A DNA stretch of 55,193 bases from a virus (IMGVR_UViG_3300048686_000358:1-55193); one strand, 5' to 3'; shown: positions 5,638-29,286, numbered from the stretch's first letter. Numbers and translations are program-made. The notes: generated from the letters alone by a model not told the origin.

Positions 5638-5653
5638 TTATAACATAATTTAA

Positions 5654-10573: not shown

Positions 10574-10584
10574 GTATCTACTTA

Positions 10585-12692: not shown

Positions 12693-13525
12693 TTTATATA
12701 CTCACAAATTTTGTTAGAAAACATTATATGATGTTCTGGTCCAGGATGCATCCTATCTCTTGCCAAATCTCTTTCTGCTTGTTCGCCACTTTCACTAGCC
12801 CAATTAGGCAAAATTGTTCCATTTAAGTTCATGTTTTGCAGAAATTCATATGTTACTGCGTCCCAAGATGAATAGTAAGTTTGTATATTTCGTGTTTTGG
12901 CTATATAATCCGCAATATATATTGAATTTCTGCATTGTTTTAATAATTCATCTTCGGGCAAAACTCTAAAAATACCTTCATCATTTATATCATAAAACTG
13001 GCACATACTTGAATTATGTGTAGCAATTATAGAAATGTAATTTACCTCATCAACAGTTGGATGTTGTTTAGCAATTTGCAACCTGTTATGACTGGGTAAT
13101 AAAAATATTGCTTTATTGATTTTTATATGGTTTGATACTATCAAAAATAAATCACTAGCAGTTAATATACTTGAACCGGGCAAACCAAAATTTATACATG
13201 ATGTTTTTAACTTATCTGCTAATAGACTATGCCATAGTAATTCTTTAGGGAGACCTATACCAAAAGTAAAACTACAACCAAACACTGCTATGTCTACTTC
13301 TTTTGGTAGTTCTGTAAATCTGAATCCTGTATCGTGTATTTCATATTGAAAATGTTTATCGTGCCATTGGTCTGCATATTTTATTTCGTTAGTTGTAAAA
13401 TAATCAATGTATGTTATTTCATTTCTAGGTAAATTTGACAAATTGGCGCTGGCAGTCGTATACCTACGAACATCGTCTATACTCTTAGAATCTAATAAAT
13501 TAAATTGTGCAAATTCTTTGTTCAT
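12689..13525 (-). CDS. SGNH/GDSL-like hydrolase or acyltransferase
   Basis: 278 aa. AVFGCSFTFGIG, NFGLPGSS and C-terminal DxxH (RDRMHPG). Confidence 0.75.
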   Translation of the reverse strand: MNKEFAQFNLLDSKSIDDVRRYTTASANLSNLPRNEITYIDYFTTNEIKYADQWHDKHFQYEIHDTGFRFTELPKEVDIAVFGCSFTFGIGLPKELLWHSLLADKLKTSCINFGLPGSSILTASDLFLIVSNHIKINKAIFLLPSHNRLQIAKQHPTVDEVNYISIIATHNSSMCQFYDINDEGIFRVLPEDELLKQCRNSIYIADYIAKTRNIQTYYSSWDAVTYEFLQNMNLNGTILPNWASESGEQAERDLARDRMHPGPEHHIMFSNKICEYIK

Positions 13526-13626
13526 TTATAAATGAATGGATCACGCTTTTTAATTTCTTTCAATCGTTTGCGGTATCTGATTTCAGATTTAATTTTATAG
13601 ATTATTTTTTTAATCCAGGTTAACAT
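13522..13626 (-). CDS. Small basic peptide (34 aa) ending RDPFIYK
   Basis: Hand translation MLTWIKKIIYKIKSEIRYRKRLKEIKKRDPFIYK*. RBS GGAG upstream; its stop overlaps the next start (ATGA at 13525-13522). Confidence 0.8.
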   Translation of the reverse strand: MLTWIKKIIYKIKSEIRYRKRLKEIKKRDPFIYK

Positions 13627-13638: not shown

Positions 13639-14379
13639 TTATTCACTTAATACTTTTTTAATTCTAGGTCCTGCTAAGGTCACATAATATAATTTATGAC
13701 CTTTCTCATTTACATGAGCGTCAGGGCTATGACAACTGACATTAAACTCCCTTTTTCTTGTTTGAGAAAAATCATAACCATGTATATGATTCATTCTACA
13801 CTCTCTAATACTTGTAAATCTATCGATAATATCAAATGGTAAAGTTGGTGGCGGACACCATAAAAATTTTATACCATTAGTTACTGTATACGAGTGCGCT
13901 CCATAAATTGCAGACATGGATTGATGTAGACCGATTGCACCGTTATATAGATATTTTATATAAGCATTTTTTGCTTCTGTGTATTCACTAAATTCTACCC
14001 CGGGTGCATTTGTATGATTTATTGGCCAAGGATCGGGTCTTTCAGGGTCACCCATTGATGCGGCTTCAATCCTATCTACAAAAGATGATGAGTATACAAC
14101 TAAATCAATTTCTTTTTTAAAATTATAAAAATAATCTACAAGTTGTCCAAACATGTGTTGATTTGAATTGCCGGGTCTTGCAATGTTAACAACTTCATAA
14201 TCAGTTAATTCATTTTGTAATAATGATGCCCAACAATGTTTGCTGGGAGGATCTCTGGGAAATTCAAAGAACCAACCAACCATTTCTTTCTTTTCTTTAT
14301 CCCAATGATAAATTCTATCTTCACATCCGTGACCATATGTAAAACTATCCCCTAAAACTAAAATTTTTCTTTTTTTCAT
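13639..14379 (-). CDS. SGNH/GDSL-like hydrolase or acyltransferase
   Basis: 246 aa. ILVLGDSFTYGHG, VVNIARPGNSN and C-terminal PDAHVNEKGH. Confidence 0.78.
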   Translation of the reverse strand: MKKRKILVLGDSFTYGHGCEDRIYHWDKEKKEMVGWFFEFPRDPPSKHCWASLLQNELTDYEVVNIARPGNSNQHMFGQLVDYFYNFKKEIDLVVYSSSFVDRIEAASMGDPERPDPWPINHTNAPGVEFSEYTEAKNAYIKYLYNGAIGLHQSMSAIYGAHSYTVTNGIKFLWCPPPTLPFDIIDRFTSIRECRMNHIHGYDFSQTRKREFNVSCHSPDAHVNEKGHKLYYVTLAGPRIKKVLSE

Positions 14380-14392: not shown

Positions 14393-15577
14393 TTATGTTT
14401 TAATAGGAATTATCTTCCCGCTTCGTGTATATAACTTATCGATAGCAGAAATTTCTCCACAAGTTTCAACACAATAAAGTAACTTACCATTTTCTACAGT
14501 ATCTGCTTTCCATCCATCTAAGAAAAACTTACCAAAATATGGACCGGTCAATATGTCTATCATACTATTTTGACGCAAATCAAATTTATCTAATCCAACT
14601 CCCTGCATTTTTTGATTAAATTGCCAACGAGAATAAGAAGTAGTAAACTGTCCAAATATTCCACCTAAGAAACAGCAAGGCAGTAAATGTCCTGTTGCTG
14701 AAACATATATTTCTTGATATCCTCTTTCTATTGACTTGCAATTTATATCAGACCTTTTTGCTAAGTCTTTGCTGAAATCAGTTAGTGTGGGTATTGACGA
14801 ATGCCTATATGTAAAATCAACCTTATGACCTACGTCAGGATTAACTTTTGGTCCTTCGTGATTTGCTGGCCATATTGAATATTCAAAATTACCTTCTTTG
14901 TCATAAACACTTAAGCCTTTCATTACACCGTCGTATTCCCCGAATCCCATTGGATTCTTAACTAAGAAAACAAACCCTAACTCATCTGCTAATTTTCTAG
15001 CCTCTTCAACTTGGTGTTGGTTATGTTCAAAAATTAACCATTCCCATATGCCCCTGCCATGTCCGCCGTTTTCACTGTATGCTTTCATGTTAGCATATAA
15101 TTTTTCCCACTTAACACCTCTACGATAGATGTGATTTGTATCTTCTAATCCATCTACACTAAACACCACACCACTCATGCTAAAGACATGTCTATCTTTA
15201 GGCTCGGGCATGGATGCAAAAAATTTACCTAGTTCAGCCCAATGACGAGGGCTACGCATTCCACCATTCGTTCTTACTTGAAACGCATAGTGTTTTTGTT
15301 TTGTACTTTGTTTAAAATATTCTAGTATAGGGAGTAAATCTCTAGCAGTTCCGGCATCACCTAAGTTTCCGCAAAAATTAATACCTATAACATTCTTTAG
15401 TATTTCTTCGGGAAACATTGCCTTAATATCATCTAAGTATAGTTCAGTCAATTCTAATTCAGGTGCAACAGGGCCACCCGCTAAATTTCTACTACATGCA
15501 GGACAACTAGCATTACACCTCGAACTTAATTCAATATGCAATCTTCCTATTTGTGGTATATCATACATTTTGTCCAT
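14393..15577 (-). CDS. Radical SAM enzyme with C-terminal twitch/SPASM-like domain
   Basis: 394 aa. N-terminal CNASCPAC (CX3CX2C), FCGNLGD, TNGG, FSVDG. C-terminal CKS..IYVSATGHLLPCC..CVETC. Confidence 0.92.
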   Translation of the reverse strand: MDKMYDIPQIGRLHIELSSRCNASCPACSRNLAGGPVAPELELTELYLDDIKAMFPEEILKNVIGINFCGNLGDAGTARDLLPILEYFKQSTKQKHYAFQVRTNGGMRSPRHWAELGKFFASMPEPKDRHVFSMSGVVFSVDGLEDTNHIYRRGVKWEKLYANMKAYSENGGHGRGIWEWLIFEHNQHQVEEARKLADELGFVFLVKNPMGFGEYDGVMKGLSVYDKEGNFEYSIWPANHEGPKVNPDVGHKVDFTYRHSSIPTLTDFSKDLAKRSDINCKSIERGYQEIYVSATGHLLPCCFLGGIFGQFTTSYSRWQFNQKMQGVGLDKFDLRQNSMIDILTGPYFGKFFLDGWKADTVENGKLLYCVETCGEISAIDKLYTRSGKIIPIKT

Positions 15578-16830
15578 TATCGTAATCCTATATATTTTGC
15601 TAAGTTGTCTGGTTTGTTTCTGCGTGTCGTGTACTGTTCAAAAAATACATCGCTGTCATTTCTTAATTGTAATTGATTATCTTTAACAAAACCTTCATCT
15701 AAAAACTTAATTAATCTATTGCAATGTTCATGCTCTACAGGTAATAAATCATCATTTATTAATGCAAAGAACTTGGTATACTTATTAATATAAAAATCAC
15801 GCTCACTTCTAGTCAAGCAAGCAAAACCTTGAAAATCTGGCTTATCAACCATATTGATAGAGATATATGGCTTAACTTTAGTGCGCTTACGAATATTGAT
15901 AATATCATGGTACATTTGATCTAATGATTGTAATGCGATTGCACTTACTGTAGTACTGATACTAAACTCTTTTACTGTACTGTTACCTAATCGTTCTATA
16001 TTGTCTAACCATTCATTATAGACCATACCCTCACGAATAAATTCGGCAGTCTCGCCCGCGCTTTCATTGCTAATATTCATGCGTAGATTAGTTAATCCCC
16101 TAATCTTATCAAAAAATCTATCCATGACTGTGGGTTTTTGACAGAGGTTGCTATGTATAACACACTCAATATTTGGGTTCATCTCTGTCATCATTTCAAA
16201 CACACGAAACACTTCCTCATGCATTAATGGTTCGCCACCTGATACACGGATAGATTCTAAACTATCAGCAATACTAGTAAACCACTCCCAGAATAAATTC
16301 ATATCAGGAGGGTCAATCATTTCATTGATCTCATCCATATCTTTCTGATAGTGTCTGCGGTCATCAGTGATGATACCTTTATACACGCCGTTGACTCTGA
16401 TATCATTCATCCAACTTGTGCTGAATTGTGGGCTGCAATAACTACATGCTAGGTTACATGTATTCTGAAATGCTAACTCTAATGCTTTAGGTTTGAATAC
16501 ATAATTTGGATTCTTATAATCTTCGGCACTTAAATGGTCTTTAAAACTTAAACTCTTGCGTGTTCTATCACTACGCAAGCCTAAGTTTTCATAACGCCAG
16601 CAACTATCACATGCAGGTGGCTGTTCACCTGCTAGCATTCGTTTTTGTTGTTCACGCTTTTCTGCAGGGTTATAAAAGGTGTCTACTGTATTGCCTACTT
16701 GAATGAAGGGCGTATAATGGCAACTGGCAATCTTACCTGAGTAAACCCAGATACTTGCCTCATGAAACTTTGCAAGACAAAAAGTTTTACTTGTCTCATC
16801 ACGAATTTTAAATAGTTTCTTTTCATCCAT
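15577..16830 (-). CDS. Radical SAM enzyme with N-terminal twitch-like domain (CxAK subtype)
   Basis: 417 aa. FCLAKF..SCHY..CDSCW, then CNLACSYC and SGGEP. Confidence 0.92.
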   Translation of the reverse strand: MDEKKLFKIRDETSKTFCLAKFHEASIWVYSGKIASCHYTPFIQVGNTVDTFYNPAEKREQQKRMLAGEQPPACDSCWRYENLGLRSDRTRKSLSFKDHLSAEDYKNPNYVFKPKALELAFQNTCNLACSYCSPQFSTSWMNDIRVNGVYKGIITDDRRHYQKDMDEINEMIDPPDMNLFWEWFTSIADSLESIRVSGGEPLMHEEVFRVFEMMTEMNPNIECVIHSNLCQKPTVMDRFFDKIRGLTNLRMNISNESAGETAEFIREGMVYNEWLDNIERLGNSTVKEFSISTTVSAIALQSLDQMYHDIINIRKRTKVKPYISINMVDKPDFQGFACLTRSERDFYINKYTKFFALINDDLLPVEHEHCNRLIKFLDEGFVKDNQLQLRNDSDVFFEQYTTRRNKPDNLAKYIGLR

Positions 16831-18143
16831 TAATAATTAAACTCATCATCTAGTTTATTTTGTATTAAATAATATTCCATATTTTTGTGTTCTGGAAATA
16901 CTTCAAAAAAACTTTCATTTCTTATACTGTCTAGTTTTTTAGTTATTTTGCTAAAAAACTTTAAAGTATGTGTAAGCGGTGATGCTCCTGCATCTGAATA
17001 CATAAACTTTATAGCATTTTCATATCTACTTACCGTGTTATGATATATCCCATAAGTTTTCAACCACTCTATTTGTTTTAAGAATGCTTCTTCAATTTCA
17101 CGCTTTTTCCAGTCAGGTATATTTTTTAAGCAATAATAGGGAGGTGTGTCTAACGGATTAATCATAATGTTATCTGGCTCTATCAATCCTAACTCTACCC
17201 ATTCTCTGTGAAATTCTATTAAATTAAATGCATTAGGCCAACTCAATGTAAATGATATATTAAACTTGACATGCGGACATTCACGCATCATTAGTTTTCT
17301 ATTTTCTACAACTGTGTTCCAATCAGTACCGCTACGCCAGTATTCAGCCTTTTTATGATTACCGTCTAAACTAGCATTGACACTCACATTCTTGAATTCT
17401 TTCCAATATTCAATAACATTGGGATAATTTTTCAATTGAAAATTACTAAAATTAGTATTATACCTTATCTGTACATCAAAATTTTCTAGTGTAATGAGTT
17501 GATTTAGAACTTCATAATGCTCTTTTTGCATCAGTGGTTCACCACCTGCAAAATAAATTATTTTTGCAGTAGATAAATGTGGTAATATTTCTTCTAGTGC
17601 TTGTTCTTCGGTCTTACCGGGATATTGAAAGCCATCATCAATTTCACTCCTCTCAGTTCGATTGTATAGTTTTCTATGATCCAGTATCCAACTAGTACTA
17701 AAATGAGGGGCACAACTACGACATTTTAAATTACAAAGATTGTTGTAACGAACATCTATATAAAATAATTTATGTTCTTCAACTGTACCATCTGGTTTAG
17801 TATTTGCTACAATATCTTGTATATCTTGATTGTTGTTAAAAAATTCTTCGTTGTATGCATTATAAAATGCATCACCTATTTCAGCACGATTATTACATAT
17901 TCCGCAGTTTTGATGCTGTTCCCCGTTGAGAAACTGTAGGCGCATCTTGCGTGTCTTTTCATTATTCCATATTTCTTTTAGTGTGTTTTTTTTGAGATTA
18001 CCAATTTCATTAACACCATTATAAACGCAACAAGGTTTTACATCGCCCGGTGGACCGACATATTGATGTATCCATGGAAATATACAAAATGTCTTGCTTT
18101 TTTTAGCCATCTCAAGAGGATTAAACTCATTCTGCGTTGTCAT
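16830..18143 (-). CDS. Radical SAM enzyme with N-terminal twitch-like domain (CxxPW subtype)
   Basis: 437 aa. FCIFPW..GDVKPCC..CGIC, then CNLKCRSC and AGGEP. Confidence 0.93.
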   Translation of the reverse strand: MTTQNEFNPLEMAKKSKTFCIFPWIHQYVGPPGDVKPCCVYNGVNEIGNLKKNTLKEIWNNEKTRKMRLQFLNGEQHQNCGICNNRAEIGDAFYNAYNEEFFNNNQDIQDIVANTKPDGTVEEHKLFYIDVRYNNLCNLKCRSCAPHFSTSWILDHRKLYNRTERSEIDDGFQYPGKTEEQALEEILPHLSTAKIIYFAGGEPLMQKEHYEVLNQLITLENFDVQIRYNTNFSNFQLKNYPNVIEYWKEFKNVSVNASLDGNHKKAEYWRSGTDWNTVVENRKLMMRECPHVKFNISFTLSWPNAFNLIEFHREWVELGLIEPDNIMINPLDTPPYYCLKNIPDWKKREIEEAFLKQIEWLKTYGIYHNTVSRYENAIKFMYSDAGASPLTHTLKFFSKITKKLDSIRNESFFEVFPEHKNMEYYLIQNKLDDEFNY

Positions 18144-19443
18144 ATGGTTTTAGTTTTTCATGCAATTCTGGAAACACTTCTTCAAATGTTTCATTTCGTA
18201 TACTATCTAACAATTTGGTTTCTCTATAAAATACAGGGATAAGGTTAGTCTCATCTTTACTGTTCATCATATTTATAGCATTTTGCCAGTGCTCCATATA
18301 GATATCATAATGAAAATCATGCTCTTGTGTTTCTTCGAGCCAAGCCATATGTTTCTGTATTTTTTCTGTAACTTCTTCTTTAATGTCCGGTGGCAATGCT
18401 GTTGTTCTCAACCAAACAGGATCATGCAGTGTGTTCAAATAAAATCCAAAGTTTGTACCATTCCCTCGTTTGAACAATTCGCTATCACACATGTACCTAT
18501 GTAAATCTACAGACTCGCTTGCATTTAATAAACTATATACGGCACTTACACCATAGTCAGCATTAGGTAAATATTCTTTACAAGTTTTGATCCAGTCTAG
18601 AGCCTTTTCCCACTCAAAACCTTTTCTGATATATTCGCCTTTTGCACCAATGGCATCAATACTGCCAACCATAAAGACATTATGAAAGTTTTTCAGCATT
18701 TCAAATGCATGATAATCTTTTAAAGTGTATGATGTTAAATTAGTATTATATCTAATTTTAACTGTGGTTTTATTCATATCAATCAATAACTGCAAGAAAG
18801 CATAGTGATCTTCTTGCATCATAGGTTCGCCACCACTAAAGTGTATTTCCGTATATGGATCTACCATGTTAACTAACTCTACTAAATCATCCTTCATATG
18901 TGTGACTGTTTCATTAGTAAGTAATGTCACGGGTTTATTAGTAGCACGACCTAATTTAATTTCATCTTGTATCCAACTTGTACTTAGACCCGGTCCACAC
19001 GTTCTGCATTTCATGTTGCATAAGTTATTGAAAATTAAATCAATTGTGGATATCTTTATATCCTCAACAGAACCATCTTCATTAGTATGTTTTACAATAT
19101 CTTTGTATTTGTCATAACCATTTTGTCCAGTATGATCGGGGAAATTTCTATACCGGTCATTGAATCGTTGGCGCATACTAATACCGTTCATATCTTCTTC
19201 AGACCAACAACGGTGGCATGCCGTAGGCTTTTTGCCATTCAAAAAATCATAGCGTAGTTTATTCCATTTTTCACTATGAAATATGTCGCTTATTTTTTCA
19301 TCATTCCAATTACCTAATTTGTGGCTACTATGATGGCTATAGTAACAACAAGGCATAACCTTACCATCAGGTTCAGTATGAATTTGAAGCCATGGAACAC
19401 TACAAAAATGTTCTGGAAAATTATCTATGTCTTTATCAATCAT
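18127..19443 (-). CDS. Radical SAM enzyme with N-terminal twitch-like domain (CxxPW subtype)
   Basis: 438 aa. FCSVPW..GKVMPCC..CHRCW, then CNMKCRTC and SGGEP. Confidence 0.93.
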   Translation of the reverse strand: MIDKDIDNFPEHFCSVPWLQIHTEPDGKVMPCCYYSHHSSHKLGNWNDEKISDIFHSEKWNKLRYDFLNGKKPTACHRCWSEEDMNGISMRQRFNDRYRNFPDHTGQNGYDKYKDIVKHTNEDGSVEDIKISTIDLIFNNLCNMKCRTCGPGLSTSWIQDEIKLGRATNKPVTLLTNETVTHMKDDLVELVNMVDPYTEIHFSGGEPMMQEDHYAFLQLLIDMNKTTVKIRYNTNLTSYTLKDYHAFEMLKNFHNVFMVGSIDAIGAKGEYIRKGFEWEKALDWIKTCKEYLPNADYGVSAVYSLLNASESVDLHRYMCDSELFKRGNGTNFGFYLNTLHDPVWLRTTALPPDIKEEVTEKIQKHMAWLEETQEHDFHYDIYMEHWQNAINMMNSKDETNLIPVFYRETKLLDSIRNETFEEVFPELHEKLKPYDNAE

Positions 19444-20746
19444 GTGTCAACCATAAGTTTAATTCAGGGAAAGTCTGACTAAAGTTTTTGTTTCTTCTTT
19501 GGTCATACTCATGTACAAATATTAAAAATTGATTTTTTCTCCAGCGTCTTTCTTCGTCAGTCATGGTGGTTTTTCTGGCTTTCCAGTAATCATATACCAT
19601 TTGCCATGTCTCATGTTCGACACTAGTTAATTGATTACCATACATTTGAATGATTCTATTCGTTCTTTCAAAATAATTATCACAGTAATCAGGTAATATT
19701 CTTAAATCAAATTGTTTAGGATCAGTTAATCTAGCGCAGTTGAACATAATATCTACACCATCTGCTCTAAGTTCTACAACTTTTTCTAAGAACAATTGAA
19801 AATTAAAAATACTCATCAATCCAAAAGTTACCATAATACGAATAGGAACTTTAAACATCGTGCTTACTTTTCGTACAGTTTGTTCCCATGTTTCAATATC
19901 TAATCCGTCTCTAATATATTCTGCTTGAGGTCCCCAAGTATCCATACTAGTATAGACTTCTAGTCCTTTAATCGTTTTTGCATTTAATAATGCTGTCGCT
20001 TTTTCAAAGAACATATTTAAGTTCTTTTCAGGTACACATAGGTTGGTATTAACAACTAGTGTTAAGTTAGGATTATGGTTTTCAGCAACATAATCAAGTA
20101 ACTTCATAAAGTTTCTAGTTGCAAGCGGTTCACCGCCTGTGATTCTTAAATATCTTAAATCTTTATATGCATCGGGTAACCATTTCCAAAAAGCATCAAT
20201 GTATGGATTATCATCTTCGGGAATCATATCATGCATTTTATCTTTATGCACAGTTGGATCTTCTACGGGATAACTTCCATATTTTCTAACTTCATGTTCC
20301 CAGCGGCTACTTTGTCCCGGACTACAATAACTACATGCAAAATTGCAGGTATTTGCAAAACTTAACTCAAGGTAAGACGGGTTAATATGCTTTTCGTATG
20401 GATTATTTAATATTTCGGCTCTGCGTTCAATAGCCCATGGTTCATTAGTAAATCGTTTTCTATCACTTATAGCATTAGGATTGATAGCCTCCATATTAAA
20501 GCAGTAATAGCATTCATTGGGTTGTTGCCCTGACAACATTTGTCTGCGTTGGTCTAATTTATGACCTGTATTGTGTAATGTACTGGGCGTACTTTTAACT
20601 TGCTCTAAATCCCAACGATGAATGGGCGGGTGATAACAACTGTGATTTTCTCCCATGCCGAAATGCATGGTAACCATTAACCATTTTGCGGCGCAAAATG
20701 AATGACTTATTTCATTTGGAATAGGGGTGATTGGTATTGTATTCAT
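19436..20746 (-). CDS. Radical SAM enzyme with N-terminal twitch-like domain (CxAK subtype)
   Basis: 436 aa. FCAAKW..SCYHP..CYYCF, then CNFACSYC and TGGEP. Confidence 0.93.
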   Translation of the reverse strand: MNTIPITPIPNEISHSFCAAKWLMVTMHFGMGENHSCYHPPIHRWDLEQVKSTPSTLHNTGHKLDQRRQMLSGQQPNECYYCFNMEAINPNAISDRKRFTNEPWAIERRAEILNNPYEKHINPSYLELSFANTCNFACSYCSPGQSSRWEHEVRKYGSYPVEDPTVHKDKMHDMIPEDDNPYIDAFWKWLPDAYKDLRYLRITGGEPLATRNFMKLLDYVAENHNPNLTLVVNTNLCVPEKNLNMFFEKATALLNAKTIKGLEVYTSMDTWGPQAEYIRDGLDIETWEQTVRKVSTMFKVPIRIMVTFGLMSIFNFQLFLEKVVELRADGVDIMFNCARLTDPKQFDLRILPDYCDNYFERTNRIIQMYGNQLTSVEHETWQMVYDYWKARKTTMTDEERRWRKNQFLIFVHEYDQRRNKNFSQTFPELNLWLTHD

Positions 20747-21921
20747 ATAAAGTTACTTAGTTCAGGAATATAGTCTTTGTAATTTAAGTTTCTTGCTTTA
20801 TCAACTGCTGTTATAAACTCTTTTGCTTTAGTCAGTAATTGAGGTTCATAACTGACATGCAACTTAGCAAACAAATCATTTCTTTGATATTCGGGAAGTT
20901 TATTACTGTAGTGATTTCTTAATTCTTCTTTATAAAAGTCAGGTAAAGTTGCCAAACTTAAATAATCAGGATAAAGCACATAATTATGATATGGTGTTTT
21001 GCTATAGTTTGATTGTAACCAATCACTTAATTCTGTTAAATTATGTATGTTTAACATGCTTACCGTTTGCGTTACGTGCCAGTCAACATTTGATAATTGA
21101 TTAAGTTTATTAATACTACTAACAGTTTGATCCCATTGCGTCGGATATCTAATATAATAGTTTCGCAACCCGACATCATCAATACTAGCATTAACTGTAA
21201 CTTTCTTAAACGGTTCCCATAATTTAATTAGTTGGTCTGGTATATCCATCATGTTTAGACTATACACAAGATGTACATTTTCTGCAACGTTTAAGTTAAT
21301 AAGATATTTTAAATATTCAAAGTGTTGTTTTATAAGTGTAGGTTCGCCACCGTTAATATAAATTTCTTCAACAAATTTTGATTTGTGTGCTAGGTCAAAA
21401 TAAAATTCATCTTTTTCAAACCATTTGAAATTTTCCAATGGACGTAGTTTAAACCAACTTAAGTCTTGTGATATTTTCTTTTCATCGGGATACCATTTAC
21501 TTGAACTATAACTGTTACAAGTTAAGCAGGCATTGTTGCACACATTACCCAAACGTAATTCTATGTAAATTAAATTAATATCATCAAGTTTTGCTTTTTG
21601 TTCAAGTTTGGGGATAATGTGTGCCCAACGCTCATTTTCATATTGTCTTTTACTTTTAATACCCTTATCTTCATCACTCCAGCAACCTTCACACTCAATT
21701 GGTCTTTCTCCATTAAGCATTTTTTGTCTGACCTCTATGAACTTTTCACTATTCATAATGTCAGATATGTTATCATTATCTAATGAAACAAGACTTTGTG
21801 ATCCTGTTTTTTTAGCCCAACTTATGGCATCAGTATGATTACTTCGGCAGCAAAGACTAGCACCGCCGTTTGGGTGTGTGGCAAGATGCATCCACGGCAA
21901 TACACAGAGTGTTTTACTCAT
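20743..21921 (-). CDS. Radical SAM enzyme with N-terminal twitch-like domain (CxxPW subtype)
   Basis: 392 aa. LCVLPW..SLCC..CEGCW, then CNNACLTC and NGGEP. Confidence 0.93.
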   Translation of the reverse strand: MSKTLCVLPWMHLATHPNGGASLCCRSNHTDAISWAKKTGSQSLVSLDNDNISDIMNSEKFIEVRQKMLNGERPIECEGCWSDEDKGIKSKRQYENERWAHIIPKLEQKAKLDDINLIYIELRLGNVCNNACLTCNSYSSSKWYPDEKKISQDLSWFKLRPLENFKWFEKDEFYFDLAHKSKFVEEIYINGGEPTLIKQHFEYLKYLINLNVAENVHLVYSLNMMDIPDQLIKLWEPFKKVTVNASIDDVGLRNYYIRYPTQWDQTVSSINKLNQLSNVDWHVTQTVSMLNIHNLTELSDWLQSNYSKTPYHNYVLYPDYLSLATLPDFYKEELRNHYSNKLPEYQRNDLFAKLHVSYEPQLLTKAKEFITAVDKARNLNYKDYIPELSNFI

Positions 21922-23315
21922 CCTATGCTATCCCACCATTCTAGTAGTTTTGAATTTGTAGAGTATATACTACGCATAGTAACCTTTTCATCCCCACGAA
22001 TCTTTTCTAAATGTTCTACCCATCGTTTACCATTTAGTCTAGCAGTCTTATAGGTGTCAGGCCATTCTTCTTCATGTGTTTTACGACTATTCTTCAATGC
22101 TTCTAAGTTAGCAATTAATTGACGTTGCTTCCATGTTGCTCTTGGCTGACAATATGCAATGATATCATCACACATTTCATTTAGTATTTCACGTGGCCAA
22201 CTAGTTGGACTCCACATAATATCAGGATGAAATGCAAAGGTAATCTTTGTAATGATTTCAACATCTAATTCAATACTCAAATCAAACAAGTCTTTTAAAC
22301 TGAACATACCAGGTGCGGTAATAGTCAAGTCTAGTTTCATTTTATCTTTGCCGCCCGGTAGTGCTAGGCCCTGCTTGAAGTTATCTAACCATTTATCCCA
22401 TTTAATACCTGTGCGAATGTACTCTACAATCTCGCCGGTGCCATCGATACTAGCACACATCATCCAGTCTTTATATTTGGGTAGATAATCATATAAGTTT
22501 TTGTCACCAAACTGAACGCGGCTTAGATTACTGTTGTAGCGCATATAGCAATTCTTATTACTGCCATTACGTAACATTTCTTCTAATGTCCACCAATGCA
22601 CATCATACATCAATGGTTCGCCGCCCACCCAATACATTTCTTCTACAATGCCGCGACTTACTGCATCACGGAATTCTGGTTCAACTACAGTCTGTTGAAA
22701 GTCTTGCATTGCTGACTTGATTTCAGGAACCATAAAAGGTTGATTCTTCGGAGTCCACATGTTGTGAACTTTCTTTTCTGTTTCCCATGTTGAACTTAAT
22801 TGTTCACCACACATACGACACTTGAAATTACATAGATTACTAAAACGATAATCAAAACTAATTGGCTCCATTGTTGTGTAACCAGTTTCGTCAGTTTTAT
22901 CAAATGCTTCTTGTATCTTATGCTTAAACAATGTACCGGTAAACCAACCTCGATAACTTTCACCTTCCATCAATAGATTGTTGTTACATACATCACATTG
23001 TGGTATGGCTTCTCCGCGCATTAACTTAACACGAATGTCACGCATATATGGACTGTTCCAATGTTCTTTTAGTGAAACAGGTTTATATGCATCTAATGAA
23101 GTTTTAGATTCTTTTACTTCGCCATACTTTTCATCGTTTGTTGAATCAATATATTGTTTTTGAAAACTATGCTCTTCCCGTGACGCACAACACATTCTGC
23201 GTTCACTTTGTGGGCTGATATAGGTATGAGTCCAAGGTGCCATACAGAACACCTTGTTTTTGCTATCAGGATGGGGCTTTGCATTATCGCCCCATAATGG
23301 TATAATTTTTGTCAT
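21918..23315 (-). CDS. Radical SAM enzyme with N-terminal twitch-like domain (CxxPW subtype)
   Basis: 465 aa. FCMAPW..RMCC..CDVC, then CNFKCRMC and VGGEP. Confidence 0.93.
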   Translation of the reverse strand: MTKIIPLWGDNAKPHPDSKNKVFCMAPWTHTYISPQSERRMCCASREEHSFQKQYIDSTNDEKYGEVKESKTSLDAYKPVSLKEHWNSPYMRDIRVKLMRGEAIPQCDVCNNNLLMEGESYRGWFTGTLFKHKIQEAFDKTDETGYTTMEPISFDYRFSNLCNFKCRMCGEQLSSTWETEKKVHNMWTPKNQPFMVPEIKSAMQDFQQTVVEPEFRDAVSRGIVEEMYWVGGEPLMYDVHWWTLEEMLRNGSNKNCYMRYNSNLSRVQFGDKNLYDYLPKYKDWMMCASIDGTGEIVEYIRTGIKWDKWLDNFKQGLALPGGKDKMKLDLTITAPGMFSLKDLFDLSIELDVEIITKITFAFHPDIMWSPTSWPREILNEMCDDIIAYCQPRATWKQRQLIANLEALKNSRKTHEEEWPDTYKTARLNGKRWVEHLEKIRGDEKVTMRSIYSTNSKLLEWWDSIG

Positions 23316-24838
23316 TGTAAGTCTGGATTGACGAACACATCCTTACTTGGATCTTCTGGTGGATGATCAGGAATATGATTTACGCCATCACGATATTGTC
23401 CTGTAAGTATTTCTTCTTGTAATGGGAGTTCTGTTTCAATACTATCATACCATTGAACAAATTCGGGAGGGAATGTAGCACGGAAATTCTTACCGCGGCG
23501 TACATCATACTGATGATAGAATTGCTTAAAATCACGCTTGTTCTGCTCAGGATCCTTAACATTCTTATGTGGTGTTTTGATAACGTCAAGATAATCAATC
23601 AATCGTTGTGTTTGCTCACGTTCAATACTCATAAGCATTTGCTTACCGTCTCTAGTACGATAATCTGCTTCAATTTGTTTATTTAACCATGCTTGCAATT
23701 CGTTGCTATACTTTTGACGAATCTCCATTGGAAGCATAGCGCAACTTTGGAAACTAGGGAAACGCAAGATATTCAAACTCATTGTTGGGTAGCAAGTATC
23801 GTAAATGCGTTTGAACTCCATCATTTGATCCATAAACTGAACAATGCTCGCAAGACACAAACTATTGATAGTCATCATCATATGTGTCTTTTTGATATTG
23901 CCTTCAGTATGCAATCTTTGTAGATTATGTATCCACTTGTTCCAGTTGAAACCATCACGAATATATTCAGCATGTGGACCGAAACTCTCACAACTTGTAT
24001 ATACTTCAAGCCAGGGAACATAATGACTTAATTCAATAAGTCTGTCCATAATTTCATCTTTAGGCACAAGATTACTGTTAATAGCATAGCGCATAACTTT
24101 GCCGTCAGGTCTATTCTTAACACGCTCTTGGTTGTCGCGGAACCATTCAAAGAGTTTCCATACACCGGCAGCCATTAATGGCTCGCCACCTGTAATACGA
24201 ATTTCTTCTAGGTTATCAGCAAGACCGTTTGGCATTTCCCACCACTTCCAAAACGCCTGACTATATGGATTGATATCGTCAGGCATAGGTTTAGCATGAT
24301 CGGCTTCATTAATGAAGTGACTTCTTGCATCACCATTGATGTTACGATATGGACCAAACTTGTGAATATCTTTTACCCATGTTGTACTAAAACTAGGATT
24401 GCAATAACTACATGCAAAATTACAAGTACGGTCAAAACTAATTTCTAATGTTTTTAACATTGTATTAGTTTGCCAATCACTTTGTGCAGCCTCAATAATA
24501 TGCTTTTCATCAAACACCGCAGTTTTGTATACTCGGTCACTTATTGATCCACGACCCAAATCTTCAATCTTCCAGCAGTATTCACATTCTTGCGGACGCT
24601 TGCCTTCCTGCATAAGTTTACGCATGTACTTCTTATGTTGACTATTATGAATAGCACTTGGATTATTAATTAATTCACCTGCATCAATTTGATGCCCCAA
24701 TGGGTGGTGACAACTAGTTGTCTGCCCGTTGCCTAACCAAATAGTTGCGTTCAACCATTTAGCGGCGCAAAAACTATCACTAATCTTGTCAATTAGTCTG
24801 ACCTTATATTCGTGAAAACTTTCTTCGTGTCTTTTCAT
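23312..24838 (-). CDS. Radical SAM enzyme with N-terminal twitch-like domain (CxAK subtype)
   Basis: 508 aa. FCAAKW..SCHHP..CEYCW, then CNFACSYC and TGGEP. Confidence 0.93.
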   Translation of the reverse strand: MKRHEESFHEYKVRLIDKISDSFCAAKWLNATIWLGNGQTTSCHHPLGHQIDAGELINNPSAIHNSQHKKYMRKLMQEGKRPQECEYCWKIEDLGRGSISDRVYKTAVFDEKHIIEAAQSDWQTNTMLKTLEISFDRTCNFACSYCNPSFSTTWVKDIHKFGPYRNINGDARSHFINEADHAKPMPDDINPYSQAFWKWWEMPNGLADNLEEIRITGGEPLMAAGVWKLFEWFRDNQERVKNRPDGKVMRYAINSNLVPKDEIMDRLIELSHYVPWLEVYTSCESFGPHAEYIRDGFNWNKWIHNLQRLHTEGNIKKTHMMMTINSLCLASIVQFMDQMMEFKRIYDTCYPTMSLNILRFPSFQSCAMLPMEIRQKYSNELQAWLNKQIEADYRTRDGKQMLMSIEREQTQRLIDYLDVIKTPHKNVKDPEQNKRDFKQFYHQYDVRRGKNFRATFPPEFVQWYDSIETELPLQEEILTGQYRDGVNHIPDHPPEDPSKDVFVNPDLQ

Positions 24839-24845
24839 ATCTTCC

Positions 24846-26411
24846 TCAATGTTTGGTATGTGCTTTTATGCATTCTCTCCAGTAACTTTTTAGTTCTGGA
24901 AAGGTTTCTAAGAAATTTGTTTGCCTGCGTCTATCATATTCACTAATGAACATGTAGAAGTTGTTTTTATTTAGTTGCAATTGCTCTGATGGTAGAGATT
25001 CCTTCATTATAGCCAAATCTCGTTTGATTTTTAGTATTTCGTATGGTTTAAAACCTTCAAATGTTTCTAAATAATCATCACCCTGTACATTTTCTTCCAT
25101 GTATTTTAGACATCGTTCTACTTCATCAATGCCATATTGTCCACTGTTTTGAATGCTAAACCAGGGGGGATAACGCAATATTGGAATGTCAAAGAATACC
25201 CGCTGAAATTTCTTTTGCTTGTATACTTTATGGACAATATTATTTTCTTTTTCTATTTCAGTTTGCTCGGGGGCAATCTCAAACTCAACTTGACTTCTGC
25301 CACCAAATTCTTTTCTAAGTTCCAATATCATTTCTAAAAACTTATGTAAACTTGGAATACTTAAAATGTTAAAGGTATTAATGAAACTAACTGTACTGTA
25401 TTTTGTCTCACGCAAAAAGGTACGTACATTATTAAGCATTCGTTCAAACTCTAACCCGGTACGCATATATTCTGCTTGTTTACCATACCCATCCAAACTT
25501 ACAAACAACCAAAAATGTTTGAAACCTTTATCTACATACCAATGATTGCCACTGAACTCATTAAAGTTTTCTTTATCTTCGTATGTTCGTAGTTCTTCGA
25601 TTGCTTTTACTTTGTCTAAAAATTTATCAAATAACTTTTGATCTGGCGGACACATGTTACTTGTGATACTTAATTCAAGTTGTCCATGTGGGTTTTCATT
25701 AACATAGTCTAATACTCTGAAGGTGTTTTTATCCATTAATGGTTCACCACCTGTCATACGAAACACCCGTAACTTACGATAGATATTAGGCCACCATTCC
25801 CAAAATGCATCTACATAAGGGTTCTCTTTCTGTGCTACCTTAAGTGGCATCAAGCCTTTTTTGTCTAGTGCAGTTAAATCATTATGCACCATATTGGCTA
25901 GTTTATAACCACCGTGTTTCTTAACTTCTTCTTCCCAAGACGTAGATAAGTGTGGGCTACAGTACATGCATTTAAAATTACATGCTTGATTGAAATTAAC
26001 CTCTACATATCTAGGTGTTACATCATAATCAAAGGTATTACTTGTAACTTCTTCAAATGTTGGTGCATTCCACCACTCACTACTACGATAATGCCTATCA
26101 CTCATATGACCTTTGGGGTCATCACTTTCTGCATCTTCTACTTTCCAACAATAACTACAGCCTTCAGGGCGTTTACCCTCAAGCATCATCTTGCGTTCTT
26201 GTTTCTTTTGAGGTGTATTATGTAACGCACTGGCCTGTGTTTTTAACAATTCAACAGGTATTTTGTGTGTAGGAGGATGATAACAACTCTGTGTTAGTCC
26301 TTGCGGCAGATGCAAACTCACCTGTTGCCATTTAGCAAGACATAGAGATGGACTGACCGCATTTAAGCGGTCACGCATGTCTCTAGCAAATTGGTCATAC
26401 TCTCCTGACAT
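24846..26411 (-). CDS. Radical SAM enzyme with N-terminal twitch-like domain (CxAK subtype)
   Basis: 521 aa. LCLAKW..SCYHP..CSYCW, then CNFKCMYC and TGGEP. Confidence 0.93.
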   Translation of the reverse strand: MSGEYDQFARDMRDRLNAVSPSLCLAKWQQVSLHLPQGLTQSCYHPPTHKIPVELLKTQASALHNTPQKKQERKMMLEGKRPEGCSYCWKVEDAESDDPKGHMSDRHYRSSEWWNAPTFEEVTSNTFDYDVTPRYVEVNFNQACNFKCMYCSPHLSTSWEEEVKKHGGYKLANMVHNDLTALDKKGLMPLKVAQKENPYVDAFWEWWPNIYRKLRVFRMTGGEPLMDKNTFRVLDYVNENPHGQLELSITSNMCPPDQKLFDKFLDKVKAIEELRTYEDKENFNEFSGNHWYVDKGFKHFWLFVSLDGYGKQAEYMRTGLEFERMLNNVRTFLRETKYSTVSFINTFNILSIPSLHKFLEMILELRKEFGGRSQVEFEIAPEQTEIEKENNIVHKVYKQKKFQRVFFDIPILRYPPWFSIQNSGQYGIDEVERCLKYMEENVQGDDYLETFEGFKPYEILKIKRDLAIMKESLPSEQLQLNKNNFYMFISEYDRRRQTNFLETFPELKSYWRECIKAHTKH

Positions 26412-27361
26412 TACCAGCCTTCGATTTCACGAATCACATCCATTTCACGAACAAGAGGACCACGATTGTGTTTGTCTGCATTCAAGTGTCGTTTGAAAAA
26501 CTTACTTTGATCTTCGTTGAGTGTGCAGATAGGTAAACCAACTTTTAATATCAATTCTTTACCAAGCATTTCAGCAACGGTCATAGGTGTATTGTCTTTA
26601 TACTTTTCCCATAGTTCTTTTAAATTATCAAACCATTGCACTTCTTTAGGATCCCAATCGGTAAGCATAGTCATATATGTACCTAACCGTGCACCCATGA
26701 TAGCCCAATCACCGTTTTCTACATCTAAACCGACATTGTGCCATATCGTTAAATTGTTTAAATTTCTGCTTGCTACTGTTTCTTTAAATTCGGCAAGTTC
26801 TGGTTTCATACCTCGATTCAAGCACATCTTAACTCCCTCACGAAAGCCAGCACGCCATGCTTGAAATGGAGTATAGTTGGGATATGTCGTAGAATAACAA
26901 TCCCACATAGCCCAATAAATGTTATCGCTACTATCCAAACAAAAATCAACAGTAGTTTTATTATCGCCGTCGCTATGTTCATGTGTTTTCATGTTCATAA
27001 CATATTCTTTAGTCCATGAACTCATACCACCATTGCCGTAACGCAAGCCATTAATGTTGTTAATTGCTTTCCAACGATATTGTGCTTTTTTAAAGATAGG
27101 ATCAACTTCTCTAAAGTCAAGTTGTATATCAAAAAACTTTTCTTCAGGCATATTATCACCGTCAATTAAAATAAAGCGTTCAGTATCACTCGCCTCTGCA
27201 GCGGCTTTGTGTGCGGCGTCGCTGCCTTTTACTCCATCAACACGCTTTGCCCAAGGCACCATGTTCTTTACTTTGAGCCAAAATTCTTCTTTCTGCGGCT
27301 CATCGTAACTTAGATAAATGCAGTCTAAATCTGCTACATCAATAATATCATCATAATTCAT
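26411..27361 (-). CDS. Putative GT-A fold glycosyltransferase
   Basis: 316 aa. DCIYLSYDEP, RVDGVKGSDAAHKAAA, DxD motif FILIDGDN, NGLRYGNGG, AWRAGFREG. Confidence 0.72.
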   Translation of the reverse strand: MNYDDIIDVADLDCIYLSYDEPQKEEFWLKVKNMVPWAKRVDGVKGSDAAHKAAAEASDTERFILIDGDNMPEEKFFDIQLDFREVDPIFKKAQYRWKAINNINGLRYGNGGMSSWTKEYVMNMKTHEHSDGDNKTTVDFCLDSSDNIYWAMWDCYSTTYPNYTPFQAWRAGFREGVKMCLNRGMKPELAEFKETVASRNLNNLTIWHNVGLDVENGDWAIMGARLGTYMTMLTDWDPKEVQWFDNLKELWEKYKDNTPMTVAEMLGKELILKVGLPICTLNEDQSKFFKRHLNADKHNRGPLVREMDVIREIEGW

Positions 27362-27698
27362 ATGTCACTAACTTCCATTTAAGTTTTGTTTCTGTGTAAG
27401 ACTCATCTACAAGAATACTTACATCTTCAAAAGCACAATCTATTCCCTCATCTGCTTCTATTAATTTTGAAACAATAGAACCAGGATTTGCAGTTGAAAT
27501 TTTTCCATTAATAATTTTTATATCAGGTCTACCTGCGGCAAAAGTGGCTGCATCTACAACTAGATATTTGCCTTCAGGCTTTTCGCAAGTATAAAATAAT
27601 ACATTACCTTTGTCATCGTAATAAAGACGAAACTCCGGCTTAACGATAGGAGGCGGCTCCCAAATAAGCACGCCATCTTGAATAATAACATCATTCAT
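27351..27698 (-). CDS. Hypothetical protein
   Basis: 115-aa ORF overlapping both neighbours; no motif recognised. Confidence 0.75.
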   Translation of the reverse strand: MNDVIIQDGVLIWEPPPIVKPEFRLYYDDKGNVLFYTCEKPEGKYLVVDAATFAAGRPDIKIINGKISTANPGSIVSKLIEADEGIDCAFEDVSILVDESYTETKLKWKLVTYEL

Positions 27699-28486
27699 TT
27701 GTATTTTTCCATAAGTATATCAGCAAAAGACTTCACATGATAATGAAATGGATACATCTGCGTATATGTATTCACACGCAATTTATCCGATAAACACTCA
27801 AACAATAAAGTAGAAGTCCAATCTTCACTTGGGGTTTCATTGACAAATTGTTTCATGTGGGTCATTGATATATATCCCGGCAGCATAGTGTTTTCTATAC
27901 CCATAATATGGCATGCAATTGCGTATGCCCAATCAGTTGTAGCAACTTCATCAGCATTGCATTTCACTATACCTTTGTATTCTTCCCAGTTTTCAAAAAC
28001 ATCTTTAACAATTTTAAAAAAATCTTCTGCTGTTTGTGATTTTTTAAAATAGGTTATGGCATTATAACAGTTAGGTAATTTATTATCATCTATAAATTTT
28101 CTATAAACTCTTGAACCACTGATATCCCCTTTAAAATTTCGTATTGTATCACAAATAACAACATCTCTCTGAGACAAAACTTCCCACCAATGTGATATTG
28201 AATATGGAATAAACATATCTGCTTCAAGTTTTATTGTGTATTCATAGGGACTTGCTTCATATACTTGCCAATCGTTAATAAGTTTCCAGTCACTATCAGG
28301 AGCCAAATCACCATATGGCAATTCTACTACATTGTCAAAAGCATTGCACATACTGACATCATTACTAATTAAAGTTATAGATTCATCTGGCATGGCTCGT
28401 TTAATACTTTTGGCTAATACTTCAGCACACTTTACATAGTTTACTTTTTCAGTGTTTTGAGCCAATATAATAAATCCACGATTCAT
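27695..28486 (-). CDS. Putative nucleotide-diphospho-sugar transferase (GT-A like, EAD in place of DxD)
   Basis: 263 aa. SPYEYTIKLEADMF; paralogous to the adjacent 267-aa gene (G hydrophobic A start, SPY..T, FKKS..A..FF/IF, DWAYAIA vs DYALTLA). Confidence 0.65.
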   Translation of the reverse strand: MNRGFIILAQNTEKVNYVKCAEVLAKSIKRAMPDESITLISNDVSMCNAFDNVVELPYGDLAPDSDWKLINDWQVYEASPYEYTIKLEADMFIPYSISHWWEVLSQRDVVICDTIRNFKGDISGSRVYRKFIDDNKLPNCYNAITYFKKSQTAEDFFKIVKDVFENWEEYKGIVKCNADEVATTDWAYAIACHIMGIENTMLPGYISMTHMKQFVNETPSEDWTSTLLFECLSDKLRVNTYTQMYPFHYHVKSFADILMEKYK

Positions 28487-29286
28487 TTTATTAACTCCAT
28501 AAAGTTTTCTTTATTCATTACATGAAAATCCATATCTTTAATTGTAATGTATTCTTTACGAATTTTACCACGCTGCCAATGGTCAAACATTACAGTGTAT
28601 TCAGAATTAAATTCGTCATCATTGTTACGATAGATGGATGTATTTTTTCCAACGTGAACTAAGTTCCATGGTATAATATCACGCTTAACATCAATATGTC
28701 CATTTACTATTCTTAGTGCTAGTGTAAGTGCGTAATCGTTTCGATAGACGCCACCGACAAAACTATGAATATTACAATAATGGTCATAATTTTTTTGCAC
28801 CATTTCTAAACATTCAAATATTTGCTTTGCTCTTTTTGATTTTTTAAAAGCGACAACAGTAGCCCACATGGTTTGAAAACTATAAGCACTAAGTACTTCT
28901 TGTGGCAATCCTGGCTGCATCAAATAACTAGTTGTGTCGTGACAGCAAAAATCATCATAATATTTAAAAATATCAAGAGTTTTATTTGAATTGACCATAT
29001 AATCAGTATCCATTAATAAGGTTTCATCATATGGGCTATGTTCGTATGCTTGATATCTCCCCTTGTTTATCCAAACACTATGTTCTCTAATATTATCTTT
29101 GTCTGGACTTATAATTATTGTTTTATCAAATTTATATTGAGAATCTGAATCTATAGAAGTTTCATCTGTAACTACAGTAACTGGTAAATTTAAAAAATGA
29201 TTAATTCTTTTGGCTGTGGCAACAGCCATTTTATAATAGTTAAATTTGGGAGAATTAAAAGCAAAAAGTATTGCGCCTTTTGTCAT
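28483..29286 (-). CDS. Putative nucleotide-diphospho-sugar transferase (GT-A like)
   Basis: 267 aa. SPYDETLLMDTDYMV (DxD), WATVVAFKKS, YRNDYA, HVMNK. Confidence 0.7.
   Translation of the reverse strand: MTKGAILFAFNSPKFNYYKMAVATAKRINHFLNLPVTVVTDETSIDSDSQYKFDKTIIISPDKDNIREHSVWINKGRYQAYEHSPYDETLLMDTDYMVNSNKTLDIFKYYDDFCCHDTTSYLMQPGLPQEVLSAYSFQTMWATVVAFKKSKRAKQIFECLEMVQKNYDHYCNIHSFVGGVYRNDYALTLALRIVNGHIDVKRDIIPWNLVHVGKNTSIYRNNDDEFNSEYTVMFDHWQRGKIRKEYITIKDMDFHVMNKENFMELIK

Follow-up and report, generated by a model that had tools for sequence, protein, structure and literature searches.

The window, by which we mean the whole stretch of DNA analyzed, is a virus record from IMG/VR, 55,193 bases in length (IMGVR_UViG_3300048686_000358), and it carries an array of nine consecutive radical S-adenosylmethionine (SAM) genes. 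The CheckV completeness of the record was about 16%, and therefore the full genome should be near 350 kb; the window is a fragment of a T4-like jumbo phage. Its large open reading frames (ORFs) were on the minus strand without exception. Nine of them stood back to back and filled positions 14393-26411, and in order of rising coordinate they encoded proteins of 394, 417, 437, 438, 436, 392, 465, 508, and 521 aa, with coordinates and strand exactly as an earlier note on this DNA had given them. The junctions of the nine ORFs were overlaps of 1-17 nt in eight of nine cases and a 7-nt gap in the other. Neither sigma-70-like promoters (106 sites, against 94 ± 10 by chance) nor terminators (10, against 10 ± 3.3) exceeded the chance level within the cassette formed by the array and its neighbors, and therefore a single transcription unit is the simplest reading.

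The nine proteins were compared with the curated protein families. NCBIfam model NF033640 (N_Twi_rSAM, "twitch domain-containing radical SAM protein"), which has a curated cut-off of 170 bits, matched eight of the nine copies at 243.8-362.0 bits, from model positions 1-2 to 385-398. Numbered from the upstream end, and all on the minus strand, these N-terminal-twitch (N-twitch) proteins were copy 1 (24846-26411, 521 aa, motif form AKW..SC, 296 bits, CX3CX2C at residue 144), copy 2 (23312-24838, 508 aa, AKW..SC, 293 bits), copy 3 (21918-23315, 465 aa, PW..CC, 307 bits), copy 4 (20743-21921, 392 aa, PW..CC, 345 bits), copy 5 (19436-20746, 436 aa, AKW..SC, 284 bits), copy 6 (18127-19443, 438 aa, PW..CC, 350 bits), copy 7 (16830-18143, 437 aa, PW..CC, 362 bits), and copy 8 (15577-16830, 417 aa, AKF..SC, 244 bits). 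The Pfam Radical_SAM model (PF04055, gathering score 29.5 bits) recognized five of the nine copies above its gathering score (33.3-40.3 bits), and the other four scored below it (29.4, 29.3, 25.0, and 20.4 bits). The CX3CX2C motif was found in all nine copies and was invariant in their orthologues, so the claim that it is intact throughout was borne out. A T4 late-promoter consensus, TATAAATA, occurred only once in the whole window, against 12.0 ± 3.5 expected and at least one in 100 of 100 shuffles; this sole site (18270-18277, minus strand) was on the gene strand inside copy 6, about 130 nt upstream of the start of copy 7.

The arrangement of cysteines in the eight N-twitch copies was then taken from their alignment. 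Four N-terminal cysteines (C18, C37, C74, and C77 in first-copy numbering) were invariant, as were the CX3CX2C triad and a GGEP motif. The N-terminal unit covered about residues 10-90, ahead of the CX3CX2C motif at residues 125-162. Because of this order the eight copies are not classed with the classical twitch enzymes, which they would nevertheless resemble in working. When a profile built from one copy together with 29 homologues and paralogues was searched against solved structures, residues 11-89 of copy 7 aligned to the C-terminal twitch domain of BtrN (E value 3.5e-8) with the SC..PC..CxxC cysteines in register, and BtrN was the sole significant solved-structure match touching the N-terminal unit. 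The seven- to eight-cysteine SPASM motif for two auxiliary clusters was not found in the N-terminal unit, which held four invariant cysteines; because four cysteines correspond to one cluster, the unit is twitch-like rather than a full SPASM domain, and by its sequence it is placed before the barrel. Pfam SPASM (PF13186) matched the N-terminus above its cut-off in four of the nine copies at 26.1-50.2 bits, including copy 3 (residues 24-111), copy 4 (residues 6-81), and copy 6 (50 bits, residues 14-80), as is expected for a related, shorter twitch unit. The earlier note had proposed such an N-terminal unit in eight copies, and the NF033640 matches together with the four cysteines aligned to the BtrN twitch agree with it; its motif description (PW/AKW, CC or SC, and CxxC) was accurate except that one copy reads AKF.

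The same note had held that this architecture is catalogued with no demonstrated reaction, and this accorded with the NF033640 entry and with our literature search, which returned no paper with the accession or name of NF033640, none pairing "N-terminal twitch" with radical SAM, and no characterised reaction. The search also returned no paper combining carbamoyltransferase, radical SAM, and T4-like.

The ninth radical SAM protein (14393-15577, minus strand, 394 aa) was different, with the barrel first and a C-terminal cysteine cluster. Its NF033640 match of 37.6 bits was confined to the barrel (model positions 107-271) and under the cut-off, so that it is not a family member. The CX3CX2C motif was at C21/C25/C28, and C280, C301, C302, C369, and C373 near the C-terminus were invariant among seven orthologues. 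The barrel aligned to the N-twitch profile by hhalign with a probability of 95% (E value 1.6e-8). The C-terminal part (about residues 270-380) gave an E value of 0.18 against the N-twitch unit, which is not significant. The C-terminal cysteine region had no match in the PDB, and the protein had one weak NCBIfam SPASM-family match (E value 2e-4). Thus, of the suggestion that this copy has the auxiliary domain in the usual C-terminal place, the conserved C-terminal cysteine cluster stood, but its likeness to a twitch or SPASM domain did not reach significance.

Copy 7 was modelled with AlphaFold2 (AF2), giving a predicted local distance difference test score (pLDDT) of 92.9 and a predicted template modelling score of 0.89. 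Compared with eight solved radical SAM barrels, the model showed the partial triose-phosphate-isomerase (TIM) barrel fold, with Z scores of 13.2-11.4. The best match was BlsE (Z 13.2, root mean square deviation (rmsd) 3.2 Å over 216 aligned residues; Foldseek E value 4.4e-6), followed by CteB (12.5), MoaA (12.3), SkfB (12.2), and anSME (12.1), with SuiB, GDGT-MAS, and viperin within about 2 Z; the matches to QueE and viperin were weak. Since sugar and peptide enzymes were tied in Z score, the fold does not name the substrate class.

We next analyzed the age and maintenance of the array, and nineteen viral loci related to it were retrieved. Pairwise identity was 22-36% among the eight N-twitch copies and 20-24% between these and the ninth, in line with the strong divergence noted earlier, and no copy was truncated relative to its orthologues. 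In a quick IQ-TREE phylogeny of 83 copies (LG+G4), each of the nine fell in its own one-to-one orthologue clade with Shimodaira-Hasegawa-like approximate likelihood ratio support (SH-aLRT) of 99-100; branches within the orthologue clades were short, and the stems between paralogues were long (0.6-1.9 changes per site). Selection was estimated by the Nei-Gojobori method on 52 orthologue pairs, in 14 of which synonymous divergence (dS) was saturated. The proportion of nonsynonymous differences (pN) was 0.04-0.26, against a near-saturated synonymous proportion (pS) of 0.57-0.84. The ratio of nonsynonymous to synonymous divergence (dN/dS) could be computed for 33 of 46 pairs of the eight copies, where it was 0.017-0.109, and for five of six pairs of the ninth, where it was 0.097-0.20. 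By copy, it was 0.04-0.06 for copy 1, whose orthologues were 87-90% identical, 0.05-0.06 for copy 2, 0.03-0.08 for copies 3 and 5, 0.05-0.09 for copy 4, 0.07-0.09 for copy 6, 0.035-0.045 for copy 8, and 0.10-0.20 for the ninth. These low ratios indicate that all nine copies are maintained by purifying selection. Relaxed selection on most copies, which had been named beforehand as the observation that would speak against an old, maintained expansion, was checked by dN/dS and was not seen, and the one-to-one clades on long stems together with the low ratios support such an expansion.

We also examined where the paralogues differ. At 62 alignment positions the residue was constant within orthologue groups and at least five residue types occurred between groups. 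The twitch unit held more than its share of these paralogue-specific positions (20 of 85 residues, against 42 of 352; Fisher P = 0.009), and few of them fell in the C-terminal helices (3 of 98). Judged from the alignment, this pattern would fit specialisation of the surface around the auxiliary cluster, and the data are consistent with a distinct step for each paralogue.

The distribution of the family was investigated in viral and prokaryotic sequences. A protein search gave 4,367 clusters at an E value of 0.001 or below among 6,160 candidates, and some of the contigs were 290-360 kb long. NF033640 had 10-17 matches in each of five relatives' records, and N-twitch copy number differed between phages, with up to 13 copies in relatives. 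The complete 352-kb relative, G001, had 12 copies over the cut-off and one at 163.6 bits; 12 of these 13 were in tandem at the same place as the array of the window. T4-type Gp23 and gp25 were found in G001 and other relatives. Five further paralogue groups occurred in relatives and had no counterpart in the window. In G001 the extra paralogues were at 5343-6563, 9195-10202, 10247-11536, and 11549-12730 of locus L021 and from L021 position 19272 to L022 position 621. Two of the extra groups were short; their CX3CX2C motif lay near residue 90, their family scores were weaker, and they may have a reduced twitch unit; another extra group was the distal copy just before a small ORF described below. 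G001 had 16 Radical_SAM matches in total. It also contained two homologues of A-type iron-sulfur (Fe-S) carriers (PF01521; C1:139714-140016, 75.6 bits, and 275742-276053, 70.1 bits), and these fit the remark of the earlier note on a large Fe-S cost.

A scan of one genome per prokaryotic species gave 34 loci. Arrays as a bacterial feature were considered and rejected: the arrays in a "Haliscomenobacter" metagenome-assembled genome (MAG) shared two contigs with T4-type Gp23, and in a "Legionellales" MAG one contig (C7) carried an N-twitch gene and Gp23, while the main array contig (C2), itself without Gp23, carried a cassette homologous to that of the phages. The array contigs in both MAGs are mis-binned jumbo-phage DNA. 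Taken together, contigs C1 and C3 of G006 and C2, C7, and C9 of G007 (loci L023-L025), as binned into these MAGs, carried T4-type Gp23/gp25 genes and the same phage cassette. The two bacterial isolates checked had one N-twitch copy each and no Gp23. A near-identity search of a sequenced-phage collection with the whole array gave no match, and a protein search of this collection gave distant cultured relatives only. NF033640 members did occur in cultured phages: two in Vibrio phage K566 (202 and 193 bits), which had a further N-twitch gene at 154 bits (locus tags of the three 0303, 0305, and 0306), and one in Ralstonia phage RsoM2USA (305 bits). Because the family has members in these cultured phages, the question of its function is experimentally approachable.

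The genes around the array were analyzed next, and all of them were on the minus strand. Tail-fibre-like genes stood upstream of the array. A putative GT-A-like transferase of 316 aa (26411-27361) lay directly upstream of copy 1. It contained an IDGDN motif, and in its AF2 model (pLDDT 84.1) residues 4-169 matched GT-A glycosyltransferases with a Z score of 9.0 (rmsd 3.4 Å, 141 residues). Each of the 29 matches at Z 8 or above was either a GT-A enzyme or a nucleotidyltransferase sharing that fold, but Z 7-8 is common background. This protein had no Pfam family match and was 59-77% identical to homologues in related phage loci. Next came a conserved protein of 115 aa (27351-27698; 61% identical in G001 and 34% in phage contig L024; no family match) and two paralogous proteins of 263 and 267 aa (27695-29286), with homologues in L020 and L024, which are possibly glycosyltransferase-like on an Atlas lead. 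The language-model features of the 263-aa protein gave as leads viral "nucleotide-diphospho-sugar transferase" clusters at 0.98-0.99 and PF03407/GT8 clusters at 0.96.

On the other side of the array was a putative SGNH/GDSL-like protein of 246 aa (13639-14379), with a Pfam Lipase_GDSL score of 22.8 bits, below the 23.6 cut-off, and homologues of 33-39% identity in 10 related loci. Then came a conserved 34-aa ORF (13522-13626) and a 278-aa protein (12689-13525), possibly SGNH-like on an Atlas lead (0.93 to a cluster with Lipase_GDSL in 15% of its members), which had homologues in 13 related loci. These were followed by a NodU/CmcH-type carbamoyltransferase of 494 aa (11208-12692; 109.5 bits to Pfam Carbam_trans_N and 163.1 bits to Carbam_trans_C), which shared 55-69% identity with its counterparts in related phage loci, and by a 207-aa protein (10585-11208) that is SGNH-like by its N-terminal GDS motif and had no family match. 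The last member was a 1639-aa repeat protein (5654-10573) with 13-15 tandem repeats of about 66 aa (FDFSWxPDPxDPPYIYxFGNQW...) and a GT-A-like C-terminal domain homologous to the 316-aa protein; it had a 64% identical orthologue in G001 and no Pfam family match. The cassette neighbors were kept with the array in G001 and L024 at 31-80% identity. PHROGs, Pfam, and NCBIfam gave no match for most of the array neighbors. No transmembrane-like segments were found in the cassette proteins at 5654-29594, apart from one borderline window of residues, and no flippase or polymerase was found in the window. In RsoM2USA, an unrelated cultured jumbo phage, an N-twitch gene, the small ORF, a gene of about 280 aa, and a NodU-like carbamoyltransferase stood in the same order, so the pairing of N-twitch radical SAM and NodU-like carbamoyltransferase recurs.

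Further upstream, a gp25-like baseplate gene was found at 54727-55176. Between it and the fibre-like genes was a single ORF of 6205 aa (32657-51274, minus strand), presumably encoding a giant fibre or structural protein, with a counterpart of at least 4450 aa in G001.

The 34-aa ORF, which is basic and ends in DPFIYK, was examined separately. It had 17 homologues in loci L001-L025, mostly of 33-41 aa, whose basic N-terminal half varied and whose C-terminus, KRDPFIYK-stop, was nearly invariant. All viral contigs were scanned with the back-translated last eight codons and stop, which gave at least 120 loci (listed as L057-L176), and an ORF ending in the motif was present at 120 of the 120 listed. 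Among the 86 listed loci that extended far enough, 77 had a carbamoyltransferase downstream on the same strand, and in 52 it directly adjoined the ORF, mostly with a 4-nt overlap. An N-twitch gene was present in 31 of the 120 loci listed and in 23 of the 84 of at least 6 kb. The ORF had no cysteine, and no NCBIfam model, including the models of precursors of peptides made by ribosomes and modified after translation (RiPPs), matched it. It is therefore a real conserved gene that belongs with the carbamoyltransferase, and it does not speak for a RiPP pathway. A role as precursor peptide of the radical SAM enzymes was rejected, and the link between the two that the earlier note had drawn did not hold, since the ORF travels with the carbamoyltransferase (77 of 86, against 31 of 120 with an N-twitch gene). 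In RsoM2USA the small ORF is unannotated (L178, about 9170-9275).

Complex prediction for the small ORF and the carbamoyltransferase gave a score of 0.60 (runs 0.57-0.64), and the best of three controls was 0.00. At least 86% of contacts agreed between runs, and the partner pLDDT was at least 76. Of 80 solved complexes, 58 reach the mark applied, as do 2 of 110 mismatched pairs; a passing score of 0.60 or under was seen in 7 of the 80 solved complexes and in both passing mismatches, so the prediction lends weak support. The small ORF could be a small subunit, substrate, or regulator of the carbamoyltransferase. One repeat of the 1639-aa protein reads DPPFIY, near the DPFIY end of the small ORF, which may be chance.

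With respect to function, we tentatively favor, at a little under an even chance, the view that the array is the co-transcribed, cytoplasmic radical SAM set of a phage glycan-tailoring cassette that edits a phage-made sugar structure. In each enzyme, SAM would bind the [4Fe-4S] cluster on CX3CX2C and be cleaved to the 5'-deoxyadenosyl radical, which would abstract hydrogen from a sugar C-H. A second [4Fe-4S] cluster, held by the four cysteines of the N-terminal twitch unit as in BtrN, would accept or relay an electron, and overall a sugar residue might be oxidised, epimerised, deoxygenated, or decarboxylated. Every paralogue would act on its own sugar or position on the product of the adjacent GT-A-like transferases, and the carbamoyltransferase and SGNH-like enzymes would finish the product. 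The acceptor would be soluble and most likely a glycan on a virion (fibre) protein, because the cassette lies directly behind the tail-fibre genes. Gain or loss of single paralogues between phages would alter the final structure. Substrate class, reaction type, and acceptor are all inferred here. The sugar reading is favored by the nature of the two closest structures, BlsE being a sugar-nucleoside decarboxylase and BtrN a carbohydrate dehydrogenase. It is also favored by the GT-A-like, SGNH-like, and carbamoyltransferase neighbors kept in G001 and L024, by the recurrent pairing in RsoM2USA, by the lack of membrane segments, by the signs of maintained specialisation among the paralogues, and by the pelagimyophage fibre region in which glycosyltransferases and radical SAM cassettes occur together (PMC7029224).

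Several results weigh against this proposal. The fold search did not separate sugar from peptide enzymes, as CteB, MoaA, SkfB, and anSME were within about 1 Z of BlsE. No gene for nucleoside diphosphate (NDP)-sugar synthesis was found in the window. The GT-A assignment depends on a middling Z score of 9.0 and language-model features, and the SGNH assignments are sub-threshold. The single-copy neighborhoods in the two bacterial isolates had no clear theme (TPR, GT90, YaaA, and AraC). At 89 of the 120 listed loci of the peptide, an N-twitch gene was not in the fetched stretch; the module of GT-A, carbamoyltransferase, and peptide thus occurs without N-twitch genes. The radical SAM enzymes are therefore an optional addition that can be expanded, and they may act on something other than the product of the module. 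We know of no NF033640 member with a known substrate.

A bolder form of the glycan proposal, which we regard as rather unlikely, is that the arrays of T4-like jumbo phages form a modular battery for radical glyco-editing, in which each paralogue performs a different undescribed radical reaction on a phage-built glycan that is assembled in the cytoplasm and ends on the giant fibre or another virion protein. If this were true, gain and loss of single paralogues (8 here and up to 13 in relatives) would remodel the surface of the virion, and hence host range or defence evasion; the permuted twitch architecture would have a new reaction family, and these would be the first radical SAM reactions in virion glycosylation.

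The targets could instead be proteins. Here the radical SAM enzymes would install radical modifications (thioether or C-C cross-links, epimerisation, or oxidation of Ser/Cys) on a phage protein or peptide. Candidate targets are the neighboring fibre proteins, the giant protein of 6205 aa, the repeat protein of 1639 aa, and a small precursor peptide. Peptides are the substrates of most characterised SPASM/twitch enzymes, CteB, SkfB, anSME, and SuiB were structurally tied with BlsE, the array is directly behind tail-fibre-like genes, and the cassette includes a conserved small ORF and a repeat-rich protein. However, no domain of the PqqD/RiPP recognition element (RRE) type was found in any of the nine proteins at an E value of 0.01 or below with Pfam and NCBIfam, although a divergent RRE could escape these searches. 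In addition, the sole conserved small ORF lacks cysteine and any RiPP-precursor match and tracks the carbamoyltransferase, and the repeat-protein family also occurs in loci without an N-twitch gene (L059, L082, L087, L103, and L120). We therefore consider protein modification unlikely.

Less probable again is a free product resembling a secondary metabolite, such as a carbamoylated glycoside, a pseudo-oligosaccharide, or a modified nucleotide, acting on the host or competitors. The radical SAM enzymes would then have roles like those in the pathways to aminoglycosides or nucleoside antibiotics. The closest characterised relatives (BtrN, BlsE, DesII, and viperin) act on small molecules, NodU/TobZ-type carbamoyltransferases tailor such molecules (the NodU model matched in RsoM2USA), and the cassette proteins are all soluble. 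A cyanophage radical SAM gene is listed among "antibiotic synthesis genes" in the accessible text of one report (PMC12801897). However, no scaffold-forming genes, NDP-sugar genes, or exporter were found in the window, a single small molecule made through eight to thirteen radical steps would have no precedent, and the place among structural genes better fits a virion-linked role.

Decoration of phage DNA bases by the transferases and radical SAM enzymes is very improbable: the phage is T4-like (Gp23 and gp25), T-even phages glycosylate hydroxymethylcytosine, radical SAM enzymes act in some phage DNA hypermodification pathways, and the barrel had its weak matches to QueE and viperin, but the sole thymidylate-synthase-family gene of G001 is a true ThyA (342 bits, against a cut-off of 327) rather than a pyrimidine hydroxymethylase, the transferases here are GT-A-like whereas the T4 DNA glucosyltransferases are GT-B, and the cassette is in the fibre module, not beside nucleotide-metabolism genes.

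We compared the array with known systems. BtrN (2-deoxy-scyllo-inosamine dehydrogenase of the butirosin pathway, PDB 4M7T), the founding twitch enzyme, has a similar four-cysteine auxiliary unit and, like the phage proteins, a radical SAM barrel. However, its twitch follows the barrel and that of the eight phage copies precedes it, the barrels are only distantly alike, and BtrN is a single enzyme of a small-molecule pathway whereas the phage genes form an array. BlsE (cytosylglucuronate decarboxylase, PDB 7VOB; compare the sugar-acting DesII and AprD4) was the best barrel match, yet its identity was 15% and it has no N-terminal twitch. The tetraether lipid synthase GDGT-MAS/Tes (PDB 7TOL) is also a radical SAM enzyme with an N-terminal auxiliary [4Fe-4S] domain, as described in the available part of its report (PMC9433317), and its barrel matched copy 7 weakly (E value 1.1e-4, Z 11.4). 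Unlike the phage copies, Tes has a rubredoxin domain, a C-terminal cluster domain, and lipid binding, and the N-terminal domain is not termed twitch in that part of the text (PMC9433317).

Radical SAM genes have been seen in comparable phages. According to the accessible text of two reports, a T4-like environmental genome has 12 radical SAM genes and Fe-S carrier genes (PMC5332604), and pelagimyophages carry glycosyltransferases and variable "radical SAM" cassettes in a tail-fibre hypervariable region (PMC7029224), which is the same kind of place and company as those of the array in the window. The two A-type Fe-S carrier genes of G001 echo the former genome. In the available text of both reports (PMC5332604, PMC7029224) the radical SAM genes are counted or mentioned; the assignment to a family, the orthology, and the selection analysis come from the present work, and a function is absent there. 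The 316-aa neighbor matched the GT-A fold of PBCV-1 A64R (Foldseek E value 7e-4, Z 7.5) and Mimivirus R699 (Z 7.5). Like the present cassette, A64R of PBCV-1 and R699 and the fibril glycan clusters of Mimivirus are virus-borne glycan-building genes, although glycosylation of the virion in the window's phage is an inference. To our knowledge, radical SAM enzymes play no part in the glycosylation systems of PBCV-1 and Mimivirus.

Elsewhere, twitch radical SAM enzymes are met singly, in pathways to antibiotics and cofactors. The array adds a well-documented case to an uncharacterised twitch radical SAM family of permuted domain order that T4-like jumbo phages have expanded: in phages from oxygenated waters, strong selection maintains eight to thirteen apparently specialised copies, at a high cost in Fe-S. 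If the copies tailor a glycan of the virion or another phage-made glycan, they would represent a new set of radical sugar reactions and a new layer of phage surface diversity beside the host-recognition genes, and this would explain the Fe-S carrier genes in such phages.

Other genes of the window were also recorded. A 255-aa protein (1702-2469, minus strand) had homologues of 26-28% identity in L024 and at L014, L017, and L018, three loci with two N-twitch copies each; family searches gave no match, and by eye it resembles a 2-oxoglutarate (2OG)/Fe(II)-oxygenase. PhyH-type dioxygenases were the second commonest Pfam family among the neighbors at loci on prokaryotic-genome contigs (6 of 135). 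Host-like envelope or transport genes were found on the minus strand at 715-1599, 2470-3381, and 3920-4297, and they encode a Gram-negative porin (Porin_4, 71.5 bits), a periplasmic receptor of the TctC family (76.5 bits), and a small protein that is rich in His and has a signal-like N-terminus. The porin had a 55% identical counterpart in G001.

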